64,000 nucleotides of DNA from an uncultured Methylomirabilota bacterium (GCA_963845565.1 CAWJSJ010000002.1:2144001-2208000); one strand, 5' to 3'. Shown: positions 20,074-30,574, numbered from the stretch's first letter. Program-made: numbers and translations. Notes: a model not told the origin generated them from the letters alone.

Positions 20074-21570
20074 TCACACGTTGAGAGGAAAGTGTACCGT
20101 GAAGGTGGTGCCGAGGCCGACCTCGCTCTTGACGTCGATAGTGCCCTTGTGGTCCTCGACGATCCGGTGGGTGATGGCCATGCCCAAGCCCATCCCCTTC
20201 TCCTTGGTGGTGAAAAAGGGGTCGAAGATGCGGGGCAGGCGATCCGCCGGAATGCCCTGGCCGGTGTCCGTAACCATCACGCGAAGCGCTGGTTCCGGCT
20301 GGGGGTGGGGAGGGCCGGAATTGGAAAAGACCATGGCGGGGACCGTGCCCGTCCGGACGGTCAGGTCGCCGCCCGCGGGCATTGCCTGGATGGCATTCGA
20401 CACCAGATTGCTGAAGCACCGATGCAGCCGCTTCCGGTCGGCCATACAGAAGGGCAGTTCGGGATCGTACTCCTGCGCGAGCTTGACCTTCTGAGTGGCC
20501 ATCTGGTTTTCAAACAGCTCCAGAACCTGCGCGAAGACCTCATTGAGATTGACGGGGTCCCGGTGAATCGCGACGGGGCGGGCCAGTTCCATCATGTCCT
20601 CGATGACGGCCTGGACCCGCTCCAGCTCTCGTGGCACCACTCGGTTGAACTTTTCCCGCACGTCGGGGTCGTCGTGATGCAGCGACATGAGCTGCGAAAA
20701 GATCAGGATGGAGGTCAGGGGATTGCGGATGTCGTGAGCGATCCCGGCCGCCATGGTGCCCAGGGCGGCCAGGCGATCGGCGCGCCGCAGACGATCCTCC
20801 AGGTCGCGCACCCGAGAGAGCTGGGCGATCATCTCATTGAACGCCGCCGACAGTTGTCCCAGCTCATCTCGCGAGGTGATCTCGATCCGATGGTCGAACT
20901 CGCCGCGGCCGACGGCGGCCACGCCGCGCATCAGCGCCTGGATCGGCCGGGCCGTACGCCGCGCCAGAAAAATGGAGCCGACGCTTCCGATCAGCAGCCC
21001 GAGAAGCACGAACCCTGCGATCTGCCAGCGCGTCCGAGTGATTTCCTGATGCATGGCCTGGAGGGAGACTCCAAGGCGGATCACCCCCCACGTTTCTTGC
21101 GATCCCTCGATGGTCACGGGAAGTCGCACGTCATATACCGTCTCCCGCTCGGTACCGGGAAGATGGAGCTGGTCCACGGTCGCGTCGCCGGGCTTCACGT
21201 CGTTCCGTCGTTGTAGCAGTTGACCGAGCGGGTAGTCTGGGATGAACTGCGCGGCGACGTTGCCTTCCTTGTCGAGGACCACGGCGTATACGAGATCCGG
21301 TTTCTTCTTGAACTGATCCAGCGTTTGCTCGATGGACACATAGTTGTAAGTCAGAAGATCGCTGGCCACCGAACCCGCCAGCGCTTCGACCATGACGAGC
21401 GCGCGCTTCTCGACTTCCTGGACGATGGCGGTCCGCTGCCGCTGCTCGACCAGAAAAGCCGAACTGCCGATCAGCAACACGATGAGCAGGTTCACCAGCA
21501 GGGCGAGTTTGACCCGGAAGCTCAATCGTTCGGCCCACGCGAGCCAGTGGAACCTCTTGAACGGACTCAT
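20074..21570 (-). CDS. Membrane sensor histidine kinase (2 TM, periplasmic domain, HAMP, HisKA, HATPase)
   Basis: DELGQL..AFN.M (HAMP), AHDIRNPL (H box), NAIQA, DTGQGI, FFTTKEKGMGLG. Start overlaps the upstream SBP stop (ATGA). Confidence 0.93.
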   Translation of the reverse strand: MSPFKRFHWLAWAERLSFRVKLALLVNLLIVLLIGSSAFLVEQRQRTAIVQEVEKRALVMVEALAGSVASDLLTYNYVSIEQTLDQFKKKPDLVYAVVLDKEGNVAAQFIPDYPLGQLLQRRNDVKPGDATVDQLHLPGTERETVYDVRLPVTIEGSQETWGVIRLGVSLQAMHQEITRTRWQIAGFVLLGLLIGSVGSIFLARRTARPIQALMRGVAAVGRGEFDHRIEITSRDELGQLSAAFNEMIAQLSRVRDLEDRLRRADRLAALGTMAAGIAHDIRNPLTSILIFSQLMSLHHDDPDVREKFNRVVPRELERVQAVIEDMMELARPVAIHRDPVNLNEVFAQVLELFENQMATQKVKLAQEYDPELPFCMADRKRLHRCFSNLVSNAIQAMPAGGDLTVRTGTVPAMVFSNSGPPHPQPEPALRVMVTDTGQGIPADRLPRIFDPFFTTKEKGMGLGMAITHRIVEDHKGTIDVKSEVGLGTTFTVHFPLNV

Positions 21571-23195
21571 TCGCGTCCCGGAGATTTTGCCAGCCAGATC
21601 TTTCGCATGGGGATGTATGGATCGCCCAGGGCGTTCACCTCGATGCTTCGCACATACGGTTGGAAGATCCGCTCGTAACTGTAGTAGTTCAAGGGGATGA
21701 TCGGTGCATCGTCGAGGATCAATCGCTCCGCCTCGCGGTACAAGATCACGCGCTTCGGAAGATTCTGCTGAATGCGGGCTTCGTCGAGTAGTCGGTCCAC
21801 CCGCGGGTTTCGGTAGCGCGTCATGTTGTTCCGACCCTGCGAATGGAAGAGGCGGTAGAGAAAATTCTCCGGCTCAGGGACGTCGCCGACCCAGCCATAT
21901 CGAAAGATGGGCATCTTCCCGTCGTACATGTCGCGGTTGAAGGCCGGAAAATCCGTATTGTAGCGGAATTCGATCTGGACGCCGATTTCGGCCAGTTGCT
22001 GTCGAAGGGTTGCATGTTCCCGTTCGACGATTTCCGAACGCGGGTTGGACCAGACTTGAAAAACGGGCAGGCCTTTCCCGTCCGGGAATCCGGCCTTTAT
22101 TAACAGGGCACGCGCACGCGCGGGATCATAGGCGTACGGTTTGAACTGGGGGTCATGGCCGTATGTTCCTGGTGGAAGGAAGCTGTTACCGGGCTTGTAT
22201 CGTCCCTTGTAAACGTTCTGCACCAAAGCGTCTCGGTCGATCGCGAAATTGAATGCCTGGCGCAATTCCCGGCTGGTAAGCGGCTCCTTGGTGGTGTCGA
22301 AGCCAAAGAACCGGACGCCGAGAATGGGTCGGCTTACGAACTGGTGTTGTTTGCTCTCACGCGCCGTGCCCAATTCGCTTGTTGGAACTGGGGTGTCCTC
22401 GAGGTCTCGTTTGCTGAACCTCGAATACATCTCCTCGATCTTCTGTCCGGGGAAGATACGGTATTGCAGACGATCCAGGAAGGGCCGCCCCGCGAAGTAG
22501 TCAGGGTTTGCCTCCAGCTGGATCATGTCGTCTTTTTTCCATCCGGCGAACTTGAACGGGCCCGTTCCTACGGGACGATTCCCGAACTCGACGCCACTGG
22601 CTTGCACCGCTTCCCGCGGTACCACCTTCGCGTACCCGATGGCCAGGCTGGAGACAAACGGGGCGGAGGCTTCGGCGAGAGAGATCTCGATCGTGTGCGC
22701 GTCCAAGACCCGGAAACCGGAGACGCTCCGGGTTCGGCCCTCGATAAAATCCCGTGCGCCCCGTACCTTCGCAAACACTTCGATGCCGCTGGAACGTACC
22801 TTGGGGTCAAGGATGCGGAGGAACGAGAACACGACGTCATCGGCAACCAATTCCCGGCCGTTATGGAACTTGACCCCCTTCCGCAAGAAAAACGTCCAAA
22901 CCAGATTATCTCGCGAACTCTTCCAGGTTTCGGCCAAAGCCGGCGCGATGGAGAGGGTGTTGTCGTACTGCACCAAGCCGTCGAAGATCTGCTGGACCAC
23001 CGTGACGGCATTCGTATCCGTGACCCCTGCAGGGTCGAGCGTGGAGGGATTGTTGCTCAATGGACGACGATATGTCCCGCCATACTGAGGCGTCGGGCCC
23101 TTACCCTTGGTTTGCGCTAAGACATCAGGGGCGCCGAGCATTCCGGGGGCGAGGGACAGGAAACACAGAACGCAGAGAACGCGATGCAGCAGCAC
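21567..23195 (-). CDS. Family 5 (Opp/Dpp-type) solute-binding protein with no adjacent permeases or ATPase
   Basis: Signal peptide, YGGT, LDPA, IFDGLV, LRKGVKFHNG, PVGTGPF, LRQAFNFAIDR. Confidence 0.9.
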   Translation of the reverse strand: MLLHRVLCVLCFLSLAPGMLGAPDVLAQTKGKGPTPQYGGTYRRPLSNNPSTLDPAGVTDTNAVTVVQQIFDGLVQYDNTLSIAPALAETWKSSRDNLVWTFFLRKGVKFHNGRELVADDVVFSFLRILDPKVRSSGIEVFAKVRGARDFIEGRTRSVSGFRVLDAHTIEISLAEASAPFVSSLAIGYAKVVPREAVQASGVEFGNRPVGTGPFKFAGWKKDDMIQLEANPDYFAGRPFLDRLQYRIFPGQKIEEMYSRFSKRDLEDTPVPTSELGTARESKQHQFVSRPILGVRFFGFDTTKEPLTSRELRQAFNFAIDRDALVQNVYKGRYKPGNSFLPPGTYGHDPQFKPYAYDPARARALLIKAGFPDGKGLPVFQVWSNPRSEIVEREHATLRQQLAEIGVQIEFRYNTDFPAFNRDMYDGKMPIFRYGWVGDVPEPENFLYRLFHSQGRNNMTRYRNPRVDRLLDEARIQQNLPKRVILYREAERLILDDAPIIPLNYYSYERIFQPYVRSIEVNALGDPYIPMRKIWLAKSPGRE

Positions 23196-23263
23196 GTTGG
23201 TGCTCCAGTTGGCGCGACCTTTGTTGTGCGAGGGCGCGTTAGGCGCTTGAGTGTGTACCGTGG

Positions 23264-23292
23264 AGGCTAGCGCTCGCGCTGCCCGAAGTCAA
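23264..23292 (-). promoter_or_regulatory. Possible sigma70 promoter for the SBP-kinase operon
   Basis: Minus strand TTGACT-N17-TAGCCT downstream of the peptide terminator. Confidence 0.4.
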
Positions 23293-23320
23293 GGTGCGTG
23301 TGCGGAAAGGGCGGCGGGAC

Positions 23321-23355
23321 AAACAAAAGAGCGCGACCCTGAGGATCGCGCTCTT
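23321..23355 (-). terminator. Intrinsic terminator after the peptide array
   Basis: Minus strand AAGAGCGCGA-loop-TCGCGCTCTT followed by TTGTTT. Confidence 0.75.
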
Positions 23356-23389
23356 ACTCGGTAGTCTTAATGAGTGCTGTCTTTATTCC

Positions 23390-23524
23390 CTACTCGCCGC
23401 CGCCCCCGTCACCCTCGGCCATGCCAACGCGGCTGAACACCTGGGTCGAAGACTGGAGCTCCATCGCCGGAACGATCGCCAGAAGACCGAGCACCACCAG
23501 GGCGAGCACGATGAGCTTCTTCAT
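23390..23524 (-). CDS. 44-aa secreted peptide precursor, copy 3
   Basis: GGAGGA-N6-ATG. MKKLIVLALVVLGLLAIVPAMELQSSTQVFSRVGMAEGDGGGGE*. Sec-type leader. Confidence 0.8.
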   Translation of the reverse strand: MKKLIVLALVVLGLLAIVPAMELQSSTQVFSRVGMAEGDGGGGE

Positions 23525-23602
23525 GTCAGTTCCTCCGCTTTGGCAGCGTAAGTTATTTTATTGAATGATAACGGCTTCGTTTCCACTCGGACGAATGATT
23601 GC

Positions 23603-23737
23603 CTACTCGCCGCCGCCCCCGTCACCCTCGGCCATGCCAACGCGGCTGAACACCTGGGTCGAAGACTGGAGCTCCATCGCCGGAACGATCGCCAGAAGAC
23701 CGAGCACCACCAGGGCGAGCACGATGAGCTTCTTCAT
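23603..23737 (-). CDS. 44-aa secreted peptide precursor, copy 2
   Basis: Identical to copies 1 and 3, with its own GGAGGA RBS. Confidence 0.8.
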   Translation of the reverse strand: MKKLIVLALVVLGLLAIVPAMELQSSTQVFSRVGMAEGDGGGGE

Positions 23738-23815
23738 GTCAGTTCCTCCGCTTTGGCAGCGTAAGTTATTTTATTGAATGATAACGGCTTCGTTTCCACT
23801 CGGACGAATGATTGC

Positions 23816-23950
23816 CTACTCGCCGCCGCCCCCGTCACCCTCGGCCATGCCAACGCGGCTGAACACCTGGGTCGAAGACTGGAGCTCCATCGCCGGAACG
23901 ATCGCCAGAAGACCGAGCACCACCAGGGCGAGCACGATGAGCTTCTTCAT
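23816..23950 (-). CDS. 44-aa secreted peptide precursor, copy 1
   Basis: Identical sequence and RBS. First gene downstream of the sigma54 promoter. Confidence 0.8.
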   Translation of the reverse strand: MKKLIVLALVVLGLLAIVPAMELQSSTQVFSRVGMAEGDGGGGE

Positions 23951-24070
23951 GTCAGTTCCTCCGGTTGGTTGAGAATCGTTTTTGAGTCTTCGACGAATCT
24001 ACACGCGTGATTCGTTGTTGGTCGCTGGTGTGTTTTCGCTGTGTTTCTCGTCGTACGGTGTCTACAGGAA

Positions 24071-24086
24071 AGCAGGCTTCGTGCCA
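24071..24086 (-). promoter_or_regulatory. Sigma54 (-24/-12) promoter driving the peptide array
   Basis: Minus strand TGGCACGAAGCCTGCT, with GG-N10-GC spacing. Consensus is TGGCAC-N5-TTGCW. Confidence 0.75.
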
Positions 24087-24269
24087 GGTGTCGGGATTGC
24101 GCGATGTGGGCCGGGAAATGGCCGTGCATGGCGGCGATCTGTGGGTGAAGGTCGCCCCCCAAGAATCCCCGATGCCCAATTCTCTGGGCGAACGACGCAT
24201 CGAAATCGGAGATTATCGCCGCGGAAGGAAGGGAACTGCTTGAATCGGAAGGGGTTTATGTCGATGTCA

Positions 24270-24298
24270 GATTTTTTGTGCAAGCTGCTACAAAAATC
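24270..24298. promoter_or_regulatory. Candidate upstream activator sequence
   Basis: Dyad GATTTTTTGT-N10-ACAAAAATC (TGT-N10-ACA core) about 190 bp upstream of the -24 box. Confidence 0.45.
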
Positions 24299-24325
24299 GT
24301 GCAAGCCAGCATACACGAAGAGTGG

Positions 24326-25735
24326 CTAACTATTCGGAAATAGCTGGGGGCGAGAGTCAATCCGCAAGCGCTGCAGCTTCCACGCGAGCGTATTGCGATG
24401 CAAGCCGAGTACCCGAGCAGCTTCTGTCTGGTTCCACTGCACTTTTTCCAGGATGTTCAGGATATATTGGCGCTCGAAATGGCCCCGTGCCTCCCGCAAA
24501 GACAGTCCTGCCTTCTGGATGTCCTCGATGACATCCCCGCCAAGAATAGAGATTTCCAGGGGCAGCTCCCGCAGTGAGATCGTCTCGCTCTGGGCGAGGG
24601 CCACGGCCCGCTCGATCACGTTTTCCAGTTCGCGCACGTTGCCCGGCCAGTCGTAATGATAGAGAGCGGCCGTCGCCCCGGCGGAGAAACCCTTCACCTT
24701 CCGGACGAACTCCCGATTGTACTTGCCGATGAAGTGCTCCACCAGCAGCGGAATGTCCTCGCGCCGCTGACGCAGCGGCGGGAGAACGATCGGGACCACG
24801 TTCAGCCGGTAATACAGGTCCCCTCGGAACGTACCATCCTCGATCGCCTTCTTCAGGTCCCGGTTGGTCGCGGCGATGACCCGGACATCGATCTTGATGG
24901 TCCGGGTGCCGCCGACCCGCTCCACCTCGCGCTCCTGGAGGGCTCGGAGGATCTTCGCCTGAAGGTCCAGGCGCATGTGGCCGATCTCGTCCAGGAAAAG
25001 ACTCCCCCCGGTCGCGAGCTCGAACTTTCCCACCTTGGTGGCGATGGCCCCGGTGAATGCCCCCTTCTCGTGACCGAAGAGCTCCGACTCCAGGAGTTCC
25101 GCCGGGATGGCGGCGCAGTTGACGGCGACGAAGGGGCGCTGGTTCCGGTTGCTCTGCTGGTGGATGGCGCGGGCCAGCACCTCTTTCCCGGTTCCGCTCT
25201 CGCCGCTCAGCAGCACCGTCGCATTGTTATCGGCGATCCGGGCGACCAGGGTGTAGATCTCTTGCATCCGTTGGTTGCGCCCCACGAGATTCTCGAAGCG
25301 GTGGTCGCGCGCGATCTCGGAGCGCAGGTAGAGGACCTCCTTGACGAGTTCCTGCTTCTCGACCACGCGCTTGATCAGCGAGAGGATGTCGTGGGTGTCG
25401 AAGGGCTTGGTGATGTAGTCGGATGCGCCGAGCTTGATGGCCTCGATGGCGGTCTTCAGGGATTTGACTGCGGTGACGATCACCACCTCGGTCTGTTCGT
25501 TCAGGTCTTTGATCCGGCGCAGGACCTCGATTCCGTCCATGCCCGGCATCCGAATGTCGAGCAGCACGAGATTGACGTCGCGGGTGCTCAGGATGCGGAG
25601 CGCCTCGGGGCCCTGGGCGGCGAAGAGCAGGTCGTAATCCTTGGCGAGGACCGCCTCGAAGGATTCGCGGATGGCGGCGTCATCGTCCACCACCAGGATG
25701 CAGGCCCGGATCGGATGCCCGTCGTGATTCGTCAT
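24326..25735 (-). CDS. Sigma54-dependent response regulator (REC-AAA+-Fis HTH, NtrC/AtoC-like)
   Basis: ILVVDD, LLDIRMP, GESGTGKE, GAFTGA, WPGNVRELEN, NQTEAARVLG. Start taken at MTNHDG. Confidence 0.94.
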   Translation of the reverse strand: MTNHDGHPIRACILVVDDDAAIRESFEAVLAKDYDLLFAAQGPEALRILSTRDVNLVLLDIRMPGMDGIEVLRRIKDLNEQTEVVIVTAVKSLKTAIEAIKLGASDYITKPFDTHDILSLIKRVVEKQELVKEVLYLRSEIARDHRFENLVGRNQRMQEIYTLVARIADNNATVLLSGESGTGKEVLARAIHQQSNRNQRPFVAVNCAAIPAELLESELFGHEKGAFTGAIATKVGKFELATGGSLFLDEIGHMRLDLQAKILRALQEREVERVGGTRTIKIDVRVIAATNRDLKKAIEDGTFRGDLYYRLNVVPIVLPPLRQRREDIPLLVEHFIGKYNREFVRKVKGFSAGATAALYHYDWPGNVRELENVIERAVALAQSETISLRELPLEISILGGDVIEDIQKAGLSLREARGHFERQYILNILEKVQWNQTEAARVLGLHRNTLAWKLQRLRIDSRPQLFPNS

Positions 25736-27750: not shown

Positions 27751-27849
27751 GCCGTTGTCAAAGAATAAGTTGAGCGGAGACATTCCGAAACGGCATAAGG
27801 AGCCGTAACGAAATAGAAAGAGATGTATAGGTTATTTCGTAACGGCTCC
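27751..27849 (-). mobile_element. 99-bp MITE-like element, family A, copy 2
   Basis: Reverse complement of 14852-14950 with about one mismatch. TAA on both sides. Confidence 0.75.
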
Positions 27850-30251
27850 TAAGCGATGGTCGCCGCCCTGACCTGCTGGAGGGTGGTGCGACCCTGCAGA
27901 ACCTTGATCGCCCCGTCCTGCAGGAGGGTGGTCATTCCCTCGTCCACGGCCACCTTCCGAAGCTGCTCGGCGGTGGCGCGTTTCAGGATCGCGCGCTTGA
28001 TCCGGTCGGTCCCGAGCAGGAGCTCGTGCAGGCCGAGCCGGCCGTGGAGCCCGCTGCCCCGGCAGAGGTCGCAGCCCGTGCCGCGATACAGGACGAGGCC
28101 GTCCGTATAGGTGTACCCGAGCGTCTCCAAGACCGCCAAGCCGCACACCCGGGCCAGCTCGTCGAACTCCTCTTTGGGCGGATGGTACGCCTCGCGGCAT
28201 TTCGCGCAGACCGCCCGGCACAGCCGCTGGGCCAGCACCCCCACCAGGGCGTCGGCGACGCCGAAGCAGTCCAATCCCAGGTCCAGCAGGCGTGAGACGG
28301 TCTCCACGGCGCCGCCCGCGCGCAGGGTGCCGAGGACCAGATGGCCTGCCAGCGCTGCCTCGAGGAGCGCATCCCAGGTGTCCTGGGTCCGCACGGCATC
28401 CACCGCGATCACGTCCGGGTCGGCGCGGAGCGCCGCGCGGACGGCCGCGGCGACGGTCACGCCGCGTGCGGGTTGGACCTGGACTCGGCGCAGACCGGTG
28501 TGGGCCGTCTCGATCGGGTCTTGGATACTCCAGACCTTGCGCTCGACCGCATCGACGGCACCGAGGATGGCGCCGAGCGCAGCGGTGGCGCCGGCGCCCG
28601 GCGGGCTCCCGCAGAGGAACAAGCCAGCGGGTCTGGACGCGATCGCGTGAAGGGTGTGGAGGTTTCGCTCGGCGAGACCGAGTTGGTCCAGCGACAGGGG
28701 CACGCTCGCCGGCAGGAGGTGCATCACCAGGTCCTCGTTCGACCCGGCCGTCGGGAGCGTGGCGACGCGCAGGGCGACCTCTCGGTTGTCGACGACATAC
28801 GTTCCCCGACCCTCCTGGGGCGCGCGCCGCTCGGCGGGATCGAGTCCGGCCACGGCCTTGCAGTGAGCCACCAGGGCCAGCCCCTCTGCCGCCGGCAGCG
28901 TGGTATGCTCGACACACAGACCGTCCACCCGGAAACGAATGACGCACGCCCGCTGGCCGCCCTGCGGCTCGAGGTGCACGTGCGACGCCCCGACCCGGCA
29001 GGCGTCACGCATGATCTGATCGGCGACTCGGGTGCCGGCCGCCTCGCTCGCCTCCCCAGGCTTACTTCCCTGGTCCTCTCCGGTCTGCCCCATGGGCATT
29101 TCCGGCTCCCGCTGGTGGGCCACCTCGTCCGCCGTGTCTTCCGCGGCCGCTTCGCAGACCAGCGGCGCGGTTGCGACGGAGACCGGTGCCTCTGCATCGA
29201 CGGACCGGCTCGGCGTGTCCGCAACGGACGCATCGTCAGGCGTGCGACCGGCAGGGCCGGTCACCGCGTCGAGGAATCGCAGGATATCCGCGCGCAGACC
29301 GACGGCGAACCGGATGGGCCGGCCAGGGAAGGTCCGCTTGATATCCTGGATACGGTTCAGGTGATTTGGGTCGTCGCTCAGGATATGGACGCCGTCCTTG
29401 TCGTGCTTCAGGGGAATCCAGCCGTTGTTCCGCAGGGTTTCGGGATTCACGCTGTCGAGCAGAGTCGGATCGAGGCTCGTCGCGCCGTCGTATTCGATGA
29501 AGGGGCACCGGTAGAACTGGCTGAGGGACTTCCCGATGTCCGCCCTGGGGACCTGGTACTGCTCCAGCAGGACCGTTTCGACGTCAACCTGACCCTGCTG
29601 CGCCTCCCGGATCGCCTGCTCCAAATCGGCTTGGGTGATCCGGTTGTGGGCTACCAGATAGTCGAACTTGGTGGGGATCCGCCGGGAGACCTTGAGTCGG
29701 TTGAAAAACGCGATCCCCAATGTCTGGGCGAGTTCGGAGACCGCGTCCTCGTCCTTCTGGGTGAATCGTCCGCCACTCTTCTTGTTCACGAGCTGTATCA
29801 CGCCCATCAGATACTTGCCATCGGCCACGATCGGGTAGGTCAGGATCTGCTTGGTGCGGAATCCGCTCTTCCGGTCCCAGGAGCTGTCGAACGTGAGCGC
29901 CGGGCTGACGGCGCGAAGCTCGGCGCGGCTGTACGCGTCCGCGATGTTCACGGGGCGGCGGAACTTGGCAGCGAAGCCGGCGATGCTCTGCTCGCTGATG
30001 GGGACGCGGATCTCGCGGATCTTGTTGATATCGAGAAACTTGGAGTAGATCTCGCGCCGTTCGGCGTCCACGACGTACAGGGTCAGCAGCTCCGCGTCGA
30101 GCACCTGGAGGATCTCATCCTTGAGGTCCACCACGATGTGGTCCAAATCCTTGGCAGAATGGATCCGATTGATGATCTCTTTGACGTGTTCCGCGCGGGC
30201 GACTTTCTGCTCGAGTTCTTCCACCCTACTGGAACGGCCTTCGGTCTCCAT
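27849..30251 (-). CDS. GAF domain plus GspE/PilB-like ATPase with degenerate catalytic motifs
   Basis: N-terminal GAF (FD..WDRKSGFRTKQIL..P, GVIQLVNK). RFRVDG, ERRAPQEGR, LRADPDVI, AQRL, CxxC...CxxC. Walker A reads GSPPGAGAT. Confidence 0.82.
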   Translation of the reverse strand: METEGRSSRVEELEQKVARAEHVKEIINRIHSAKDLDHIVVDLKDEILQVLDAELLTLYVVDAERREIYSKFLDINKIREIRVPISEQSIAGFAAKFRRPVNIADAYSRAELRAVSPALTFDSSWDRKSGFRTKQILTYPIVADGKYLMGVIQLVNKKSGGRFTQKDEDAVSELAQTLGIAFFNRLKVSRRIPTKFDYLVAHNRITQADLEQAIREAQQGQVDVETVLLEQYQVPRADIGKSLSQFYRCPFIEYDGATSLDPTLLDSVNPETLRNNGWIPLKHDKDGVHILSDDPNHLNRIQDIKRTFPGRPIRFAVGLRADILRFLDAVTGPAGRTPDDASVADTPSRSVDAEAPVSVATAPLVCEAAAEDTADEVAHQREPEMPMGQTGEDQGSKPGEASEAAGTRVADQIMRDACRVGASHVHLEPQGGQRACVIRFRVDGLCVEHTTLPAAEGLALVAHCKAVAGLDPAERRAPQEGRGTYVVDNREVALRVATLPTAGSNEDLVMHLLPASVPLSLDQLGLAERNLHTLHAIASRPAGLFLCGSPPGAGATAALGAILGAVDAVERKVWSIQDPIETAHTGLRRVQVQPARGVTVAAAVRAALRADPDVIAVDAVRTQDTWDALLEAALAGHLVLGTLRAGGAVETVSRLLDLGLDCFGVADALVGVLAQRLCRAVCAKCREAYHPPKEEFDELARVCGLAVLETLGYTYTDGLVLYRGTGCDLCRGSGLHGRLGLHELLLGTDRIKRAILKRATAEQLRKVAVDEGMTTLLQDGAIKVLQGRTTLQQVRAATIA

Positions 30252-30574
30252 GTGTCTCACTCCCCCTGCCTTCCGGCGCAGGTCCATCCGCGTCGCGTGC
30301 CCCTGGTGCCTTTGGGGTGACCCGAGGACGGTGCGCGGTGAGCCGCCGCCCTTCCCGGGTCTGGGACGAGTTGCCGGCAGAAGACTAGCGATCGTTTTTG
30401 GCGAAGGCAAGTTGAAAGATGACCTGCGACATTCGCTTGCCCAGCGGGTCGCCTGGCAGTATGCTCTCGCGCGATCACATGCGAGGGTGCGACCCAGGGG
30501 CACCCCCGCCGGGCACGACCATTATTGCCCCGGCTCCTCCACCTGGGGGAGGTGCCCCCGTTCAGGAGGCCCCC

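Follow-up and report, generated by a model that had tools for sequence, protein, structure and literature searches.

A 64,000-nucleotide stretch of the genome of an uncultured Methylomirabilota bacterium (GCA_963845565.1, CAWJSJ010000002.1:2144001-2208000; hereafter the window, with positions counted from its first letter) carries a module of four adjoining parts: a gene for an NtrC-type sigma54 activator, three identical tandem copies of a gene for a 44-residue peptide, a gene for an orphan family-5 solute-binding protein, and a gene for a sensor histidine kinase. The unit is kept across a class of the phylum, a sigma54-type promoter with enhancer-like palindromes precedes the peptide array, and an allelic cassette of two types, A and B, takes in the peptide, the binding protein and the sensor domain of the kinase. 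We put at roughly 45% the probability that the module encodes an autoinduction loop, with the exported peptide or a fragment of that peptide serving the binding protein and the kinase as cognate ligand or modulator.

In the mechanism proposed, the binding protein and the Cache/HAMP kinase, which appear to be translationally coupled, would form the sensor, and the kinase would control the NtrC-type regulator. The regulator would bind three palindromes just downstream of its own gene and activate the sigma54 promoter, whose sole product would be an array of one to five genes for a 40-48-residue exported or membrane-anchored peptide. As cognate ligand or modulator, the periplasmic tail of this peptide or a C-terminal fragment would act on the binding protein and kinase sensor, so that the circuit would induce itself, and peptide, binding protein and kinase sensor domain would be swapped together as specificity alleles A/B. 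Phosphotransfer, regulator binding, export and peptide-sensor binding are the steps of this scheme that we infer.

Table 1. Parts of the module in the window
Feature	Coordinates	Strand	Basis
NtrC-type response regulator / sigma54 enhancer-binding protein, 469 aa	24326..25735	-	Pfam
Three enhancer-like palindromes, TGC-N12-GCA type (TGCAC-N8-GTGCA)	24173..24303	-	footprint, 11 loci
Sigma54-type -24/-12 promoter, TGGCAC-N5-CTGCT	24071..24086	-	pattern match
Peptide gene copy 1, 44 aa	23816..23950	-	open reading frame, orthologues
Peptide gene copy 2, identical to copy 1	23603..23737	-	open reading frame, tandem array
Peptide gene copy 3, identical to copy 1	23390..23524	-	open reading frame, tandem array
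Intrinsic terminator 3' of the peptide array: 13-bp stem, 8 GC pairs, T-run	23327..23355	-	
Orphan periplasmic family-5 solute-binding protein, 542 aa, DppA/OppA-like cluster	21567..23195	-	
Sensor histidine kinase, 498 aa: transmembrane segment, periplasmic sCache_3_2, transmembrane segment, HAMP, HisKA, HATPase_c	20074..21570	-	

All parts of the module lie on the minus strand at the coordinates of Table 1, as an earlier note, made from this sequence alone, had listed them. The three peptide open reading frames are letter-identical as that note stated, the terminator that it placed behind them is present as a hairpin with a T-run, and the stop of the binding-protein gene overlaps the start of the HAMP kinase gene, by 4 nt. 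Its remark that a transporter is missing also holds, since neither permease nor ATPase was found in the module or in its flanks in the window, which are housekeeping genes for a GHMP kinase (thrB-like), ProC and UvrC. The genome that holds the window (5.36 Mb, 6 contigs, 66% G+C) encodes rpoN (7e-61), and because it also encodes Omp85 (three matches) and LpxC the cell is diderm.

Conservation of the four-gene unit is the first line of evidence. A genome search for co-occurrence of binding protein, histidine kinase, regulator and small open reading frame, as the earlier note had proposed, found the unit kept across a class of Methylomirabilota. Peptide genes adjoin the binding-protein or regulator gene in 14 of 14 loci of relatives (12 from the same genus and one each from two other families); the order regulator-peptide-binding protein is found in all 12 of the relatives' loci that span it, with the kinase as well where the contig reaches, and the thrB/proC and uvrC flanks recur within the genus. 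Of the phylum's 251 genomes, 109 match a peptide profile, a count that includes G075 and G217, both unpublished. At 15/15 further loci found with this profile the peptide adjoins the binding-protein gene, and at 13 of these the regulator lies on the opposite side, the two exceptions being a locus at a contig start (L055) and one with no regulator match within 1.5 kb upstream (L054, in G135). Among spanning loci only the latter has no regulator where one is expected.

The kinase sensor domain (residues 1-200) has matches in 194/251 genomes, a tally that includes the unpublished G075, G217, G216 and G028. The earlier note had held that homologous loci generally lacking the small open reading frame would speak against it; such loci are not what was found. 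Eleven distant loci were chosen by kinase alone, i.e. by a strong kinase match in genomes where the peptide profile found nothing, and all 11 have diverged peptide open reading frames, in 1-5 tandem copies, between the regulator and the binding protein; a twelfth locus chosen by its kinase (L075) holds a weak paralogue only. In genus g21 the peptide profile finds nothing (0/21 genomes) and the kinase sensor has weak matches (28-31% identity), and at 4/4 loci examined there neither the binding protein nor the regulator stands beside the weak kinase-like match; peptide and module thus appear to be absent together. Upstream neighbours vary by lineage (RecQ, a short-chain dehydrogenase, DUF1989, a ComM-like protein, a proteasomal ATPase), which suggests that the module moves as a unit. 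No permease, ABC ATPase, peptidase or modification enzyme was found among the neighbours in the window and at nine distant loci.

In 8 of 20 same-genus genomes the peptide seemed to be missing, which was rejected as evidence of real loss. Of these eight, G001, G002 and G019 have contigs that end inside the kinase or binding-protein gene, and in G004 (L064) a DDE_3 transposase fragment lies at the contig start (3-422), 490 nt upstream of the binding-protein gene. This transposase sits at the place expected of the peptide array; either the element has inserted there or the assembly breaks off at a repeat. In two genomes of genus g22 the gene directly upstream of the regulator encodes a second orphan SBP_bac_5 protein, ~27% identical to that of the module (L078, 4837-6417, minus strand; L079, 2040-3617, plus strand). 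Some genomes hold two peptide loci, e.g. G170 (C32, C166), G249 (C423, C164) and G224, and several have more than one kinase-sensor match, up to 10 in G227; one cell may therefore contain several parallel modules.

The peptide genes form a tandem array (23385-23963) with a period of 213 bp, 2.7 copies and 99% matches, and each of the three open reading frames stands behind a GGAGGA ribosome-binding site. Their product begins with MKK, continues with an 18-residue hydrophobic stretch and ends in a conserved tail of ~22 residues. A word-based search yields 105 related small proteins, and a profile search of 1.84 billion cluster representatives yields 77 clusters, formed at 50% identity, with E <=0.001, nearly all of 36-124 aa. 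The family pattern runs M, K/T/A/R, K, a hydrophobic stretch, Pro-x-x-Glu and 6-10 variable residues, followed by (V/I/L)-F-x-x-x-G-x-A, an acidic or Cys residue, a glycine run and often a terminal W/E/D/M. Pro19, Glu22, Gly34 and Ala36 are invariant among 21 orthologues from several families, copy number per locus is 1-5 and length 40-48 residues, and conservation within a genus is strong. The window and L024 peptide genes differ by 14 synonymous and 4 non-synonymous changes among 38 codons, an excess of synonymous change that argues for real genes under purifying selection. Contigs from RNA libraries (4 runs from 4 studies) cover the array in all four, with an exact 153-nt contig in X15, although such contigs cannot rank genes, show starts or prove transcription, and the parts they leave uncovered carry no meaning. 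Pfam and NCBIfam hold no family match for the peptide, and so none to ZraP or CpxP, and in the protein atlas it falls only in unnamed clusters.

Several further observations concern the peptide sequences themselves. The bases ACCCAGGTGTTCAGCCG, which encode Thr-Gln-Val-Phe-Ser-Arg at codons 27-32 of the window's peptide, are nearly invariant among 11 orthologues, synonymous sites included, for which codon bias or an RNA-level constraint could be the cause. In family f10 (L069, L070, L072, L073, L074) the copies of one array differ in the signal region and in a 5-residue stretch (e.g. PTSMP or RTSMP, QNRLP or QTSMP), and many copies have a Cys and a C-terminal Trp, both missing in the window's peptide type. 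The assembly of L023 (G009) has thrB, uvrC and the binding-protein gene split into frames and the glycine-run tail shifted by one base in 2 of 3 peptide copies, probably through homopolymer errors; because thrB and uvrC are split as well, the tails of these two copies were set aside as unreliable. Other classes of small protein were considered and rejected for the peptide: its sequences have neither the G/XXXXEY motif of Flp/type IV pilins, nor the lipobox Cys of an entericidin-like lipoprotein, nor a double-glycine bacteriocin leader, nor the C-terminal transmembrane helix of GlyGly-CTERM proteins, and a precursor of a ribosomally synthesized and post-translationally modified peptide was dismissed for want of neighbouring modification enzymes.

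The second line of evidence is the promoter and enhancer architecture between the regulator gene and the array. The regulator has the REC-AAA+ organization with intact GAFTGA that had been read from the sequence earlier, with Pfam matches to Response_reg (4e-30), Sigma54_activat (3e-74), AAA_lid_14 and HTH_8 (6e-12) and the motif present in its translation. It matches the AtoC, NtrC and ZraR models of NCBIfam, all below equivalog cut-offs, and with scores of 489 against a cut-off of 714 for AtoC and 369 against 800 for LuxO it is not an orthologue of a named regulator. The -24/-12 promoter named in the earlier note, TGGCACGAAGCCTGCT, is the sole match to TGGCAC-N5-YTGCW in the 64-kb window (shuffle expectation 0.08, with at least one match in 6 of 100 shuffles), lies 120 nt upstream of the first peptide ATG, and is conserved. 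An element TGGCA[CT]-N5-[CT]TGCT stands 77-140 nt before the first peptide ATG in 15/15 sequences, and a -24/-12 element is found at 10 of the 11 distant loci, in the form TGGCCC-N5-xTTGCT ~80 nt upstream at 7/7 loci of family f10 and as variants at 3/4 of family f9, where L076 is unclear. Strict -24/-12 matches elsewhere in the genome precede typical sigma54 targets, i.e. genes for flagellar rod, PII, pilin and TRAP permeases.

Three conserved 18-bp palindromes (24286-24303, 24265-24282 and 24173-24190, from an alignment of 11 loci) lie between regulator gene and promoter, the first beginning 23 nt past the regulator stop codon, and the same architecture recurs in f10 and f9. They resemble NtrC-type sites, and their adjacency makes the neighbouring regulator the likely protein to bind them; the enhancer/sigma54 arrangement beside the regulator gene would fit control of the peptide gene by its cognate regulator. 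A weight-matrix scan of the whole genome gives six sites of at least 16 bits, the top two being the window's own upstream palindromes, while the other four have no sigma54-like element within 450 nt; the peptide array is thus the only detectable direct target. It is very improbable that these genes are coincidental neighbours, with the array driven by another enhancer-binding protein or unlinked to the sensor and the regulator serving other targets. Such an arrangement could be entertained because binding of the palindromes by the regulator is deduced solely from adjacency and because 27 strict sigma54-like sites imply that the genome probably has several enhancer-binding proteins. Yet the order regulator-peptide-binding protein-kinase is kept in spanning loci across differing neighbourhoods (save for the missing regulator match at L054), the conserved palindromes start immediately behind the regulator gene, and peptide and module are jointly absent in g21.

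Two other elements were seen in the intergenic spaces of the window. A terminator-like hairpin right after the regulator stop (24297-24318, minus strand) overlaps the first palindrome, and the same bases may act as terminator, as regulator site, or as both. Between the array terminator and the binding-protein gene lies TTGACT-N17-TAGCCT (23264-23292, minus strand), which is below the threshold of the promoter scan and has TTGACA-N17-TATATC as its counterpart at the matching place in G009; this element is a candidate for a weak sigma70-type promoter, from which the sensor pair could be expressed without the peptide.

The genes of the sensor pair have no transporter genes beside them, and the binding protein falls in the DppA/OppA peptide-binding cluster. 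The binding protein has a hydrophobic N-terminus in translation and matches SBP_bac_5 at 1.5e-88; its closest solved structures are the peptide binding protein 8upi (8e-72) and DppA 1dpp (2e-59), then the glutathione-binding GbpA/HbpA, MppA and OppA, with PrgZ also among the PDB matches. No NCBIfam equivalog cut-off is reached (DppA 204 against 1005). The kinase has an sCache_3_2 domain (32.4 bits against a cut-off of 28.4) as well as HAMP, HisKA and HATPase_c, and its sensor domain has no meaningful match among PDB sequences. Coupling of a binding-protein gene to a kinase gene with a periplasmic sensor domain, and without transporter genes, fits the binding-protein-dependent sensor kinases, and the binding protein and kinase sensor diverge together. 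Asp438 of the binding protein is invariant in 21/21 orthologues and aligns with DppA Asp408, which a passage of PMC3295651 describes as forming a salt bridge to the amino terminus of the ligand. The sequence accordingly makes it likely that the ligand carries a free amino group and is, in the simplest case, a peptide of more than two residues, but this ligand type does not identify the encoded peptide as what the binding protein takes. A complex prediction of binding protein (residues 28-542, 21-row alignment) with peptide (15-44) scored 0.02 against a mark of 0.32; the tool gives no verdict, and the score counts neither for nor against binding.

The third line of evidence, and the main new result, is the allelic cassette. 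Relative to the window, regulators are 74-92% identical, kinases 52-89% and housekeeping flanks 59-96%, and those binding proteins that align as one piece 49-64%. At the DNA level G013 (L024) and G012 (L032) agree to 93-98% in uvrC, thrB, proC and the kinase core and to 85-94% in the regulator gene, whereas identity is 45-67% from the regulator-peptide spacer through the peptide and binding-protein genes to about kinase codon 235. This boundary falls at the end of HAMP, so that the kinase core lies outside the variable cassette. The peptide genes of these two loci are 75% identical, with 9 synonymous and 11 non-synonymous differences among 38 codons. The genus divides by peptide sequence into the two types; type A peptides read ...SR(V)GMAE(G/S)xGGG(E/D) and type B peptides ...SR(A/S/T)GFA(E/D)GG(M/P), a peptide with GLADGGN (L027) being assigned to type B; all residues that tell A from B are in the C-terminal third.

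Two deep clades that match types A and B appear in the binding-protein tree (support 99/100) and again in the kinase-sensor tree (98/99), whereas the kinase-core and regulator trees mix the types, with L024 (type A) and L032 (type B) as sisters at 100. A concatenated tree of the flanks, built from thrB, proC and kinase core of 9 loci, requires at least three changes of peptide type, and there the approximately unbiased (AU) test rejects a single type A clade (p=1.8e-4). The cassette tree, built from binding protein and kinase sensor of 7 loci, shows one change of type, and here the same test rejects a clade of L024 and L032 (p=8e-53). L023 and L025, with genes frameshifted in their assemblies, were for that reason omitted from the binding-protein tree, and loci without the needed genes were also omitted from trees. 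A weaker second case comes from f10, where the binding proteins of the two loci whose peptides are D-tailed and Cys-free group as sisters (97), while neither the regulator tree nor the kinase-sensor tree pairs these loci. Peptide, binding protein and kinase sensor are, by these comparisons, co-inherited as alternative allelic types, as a signal-receptor pair predicts, and the two cassette types are predicted to be specificity groups (pherotypes). At the level of these types peptide and binding protein vary together, as the earlier note had proposed to look for, and the kinase sensor varies with them.

A different behaviour is seen between the window's genome (G000) and G009. The two are ~95% identical through the third peptide copy, with the same peptide core. 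Past this copy only 41-57% of the DNA is identical in the spacer; the figures are 57-80% for the binding-protein gene and 75-87% for the sensor part of the kinase, and identity is regained in the kinase core. The G009 binding protein is nearest to type A (41-55%; type B ~37%), figures that are rough since the assembly is frameshifted.

Against an autoinduction loop weigh a number of points, the first of which concern the cassette. Types A and B were named after the identity tables had been seen. The peptide gene adjoins the binding-protein gene, and linkage alone could carry its type. The peptide is ~71% conserved between types against ~50% for the binding protein, and the comparison of G000 with G009 indicates that, within one type at least, another sensor pair can come in while the peptide stays the same. 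Other points concern the ligand and the output. The position aligned with DppA Arg355, which presumably binds the ligand carboxylate, is Pro in the window and variable among orthologues. No regulator target besides the peptide was found genome-wide, and a physiological output is therefore missing; for the same reason, i.e. that no other regulator output was found, a pure negative feedback in the manner of MgrB is ranked low as the sole function.

Export and reach supply the remaining objections. The peptide N-terminus, MKK and 18 hydrophobic residues ending in Pro-x-x-Glu, fits a Sec signal, and signal-peptidase sites follow a rule of small residues at -3 and -1. Across the peptide family no such site is conserved in position: the window's peptide has VPA|M, and in most other families Pro directly follows the sole A-x-A-like site, so that these would need a cut after E-S. 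The 18-residue stretch from KK to the invariant Glu could also be a membrane anchor. Porins pass peptides only up to a size limit, and in a diderm cell a ~22-residue peptide would stay periplasmic unless cut to a short fragment or exported, while neither protease, exporter nor modification gene was found beside the module in the window and at nine distant loci. A loop private to the periplasm is accordingly as compatible with the data as signalling between cells.

Much of this also bears on a second explanation, which is a real possibility though on balance a doubtful one. On this view, the main rival, the module would sense the environment and use the peptide as its effector, as ZraPSR or CpxP do. 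An outside ligand, with peptides, cell-wall peptides or envelope stress as possible cues, would be sensed by the binding protein; the two-component system would then switch on the small periplasmic or membrane peptide, which would be no signal and would perhaps damp the kinase. Such a sensor would account for the change of sensor without change of peptide between G000 and G009, for the peptide as the only detectable regulator target, and for the diderm envelope, which retains a Sec-exported peptide in the periplasm. The kinase and regulator also score against the ZraS and ZraR models, below cut-offs, and the architecture matches that of ZraPSR, in which a sigma54 promoter serves the gene for the adjacent small periplasmic ZraP (described in part of PMC4987338). 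Family-5 binding proteins, moreover, take many outside ligands and signal to receptors, as summarized in part of PMC8050422. An environmental sensor nonetheless leaves unexplained why the type-specific peptide residues track the sensor clades against the flank tree, unless by linkage alone; the peptide has no Pfam or NCBIfam match, ZraP and CpxP included; and its acidic, glycine-rich tail of ~22 residues has no apparent function.

It is highly improbable that the peptide is instead a regulated antimicrobial or competition peptide of bacteriocin-like kind, switched on when competitors or their peptides are sensed. Tandem arrays of up to 5 diversified copies with differing variable regions, allelic diversity and tight sigma54 control would suit such a product, yet neither the module nor its neighbours include a gene for immunity, export or processing, the acidic, glycine-rich tail is not amphipathic, the peptide is strongly conserved within the genus, and a diderm would need an outer-membrane route for it.

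The autoinduction loop proposed here is also to be kept apart from its strongest form, a true peptide pheromone for cell-to-cell quorum sensing in a diderm, non-proteobacterial phylum, which appears unlikely. A Sec-exported peptide, or a short C-terminal fragment that passes porins, would have to be recognised by the orphan DppA-like binding protein; this would then switch the Cache/HAMP kinase and the sigma54 regulator and so amplify peptide synthesis, and the A/B cassettes would be pherotypes that part closely related lineages into communication groups. The quorum-sensing circuit suggested in the earlier note therefore survives in part: the conserved unit, the sigma54 promoter and the co-inheritance of peptide and sensor support it, while an exporter, a protease and a fixed cleavage site were not found at the loci and in the peptide sequences compared.

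Two features outside the module may be mentioned. Two genes from it, at 27849-30503 on the minus strand of the window, is a gene for an 884-aa ATPase with GAF_2, MshEN and T2SSE domains; it belongs to the ATPases of type II/IV secretion or of pili and has a sensory GAF domain at its N-terminus. Beyond the window, at C2:2258461 of G000 (plus strand), a strict sigma54 site lies 81 nt 5' of a 122-aa open reading frame with an MKK-type signal and an Ala/Pro/Lys-rich body.

Among known systems the module can be set beside several. ZraPSR of E. coli and Salmonella is like it in having an NtrC-family regulator, a sigma54 promoter and an adjacent gene for a small periplasmic protein, and unlike it in having no binding-protein partner and no tandem array; ZraP, of ~140 aa, is unrelated to the peptide, and we know of no allelic cassettes for ZraPSR. 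According to parts of PMC4987338, ZraR drives the sigma54 promoters of zraSR and of the adjacent zraP, a gene for a periplasmic protein, and a title cited in that paper calls ZraP a repressor of ZraSR. The arsenite system AioXSR and LuxP/LuxQ/LuxO share with the module a periplasmic binding protein that works with a sensor kinase. AioR and LuxO are sigma54-dependent regulators. Unlike the peptide proposed here, the ligands of these systems are small molecules that are not gene-encoded, As(III) and autoinducer-2 (AI-2), and their loci are without a peptide gene. Table 1 of PMC8050422 lists AioX-AioS with an sCache-like sensor, and it places AioX in the phosphonate-binding family and not in family 5 as here.

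The same table gives DppA-Tap, AibA-TlpB and CBP-ChiS (the last of Vibrio) as family-5 partners of receptors, i.e. as SBP_bac_5 proteins that signal to a membrane receptor, and a passage of PMC8050422 states that the binding-protein genes of binding-protein-dependent kinases tend to adjoin signalling genes. These three pairs differ from the module in their ligands (chitin oligosaccharides, dipeptides and AI-2), in binding proteins that also serve transporters, and in having neither a sigma54 regulator nor an encoded ligand.

The pherotype loci of Gram-positive bacteria, agr, comCD and comQXP, have a peptide gene beside a receptor kinase gene, and their variable cassette comprises the peptide and the sensor part of the kinase, with a conserved kinase core and regulator and an allele tree that contradicts the species tree. 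The module is like them in its sharply bounded variable cassette over peptide and kinase sensor, discordant with the flank tree. The agr and com kinases sense the peptide directly, processing and export are carried out by AgrB, ComAB or ComQ, the cells are monoderm, and sigma54 plays no part; the module, in contrast, has a binding protein, no dedicated processing or export gene beside it, a diderm host and a sigma54 promoter. In Phr/Rap and PrgZ/Opp signalling a Sec-exported precursor carries its active part at the C-terminus and a family-5 binding protein recognises the signal peptide, PrgZ passing it to the Opp permease for sensing inside the cell, whereas the module has no permease and couples a kinase to its binding protein. 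MgrB, a ~47-residue membrane peptide with a periplasmic tail, is induced by a two-component system and acts on the kinase PhoQ; mgrB lies outside the phoPQ locus, is single-copy and sigma70-dependent, and has no binding protein, and MgrB is not homologous to the module's peptide.

Full-text literature searches, at the level of listings and abstracts, returned nothing on such a system or on signalling in this phylum. The earlier assertion that nothing comparable has been described is too strong for the separate parts, as AioXSR, CBP-ChiS and ZraPSR are known. Gene-encoded peptide signalling, a textbook subject for Gram-positive bacteria, is hardly known from bacteria that have an outer membrane. 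The cassette joins binding-protein-to-kinase sensing and a sigma54 switch to a multi-copy peptide gene, the one output that can be seen; the uncultured class across which it is kept is widespread in soils, sediments and groundwater; and the bounds of the cassette, which take in peptide, binding protein and kinase sensor and leave out kinase core and regulator, share the population-genetic signature of the agr/com pherotypes. If binding and release prove true, it could be a categorically new signalling route; if the loop is private to the periplasm, it would still represent a new family of small-peptide modulators of two-component sensors, and types A and B would still offer synthetic biology a ready-made orthogonal sensor pair. 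None of the systems compared unites a gene-encoded peptide, an orphan family-5 binding protein with its kinase, a sigma54 regulator and pherotype-like cassettes; the kin of the module are thus the binding-protein-assisted sigma54 two-component systems on the one side and the peptide pherotype loci on the other.

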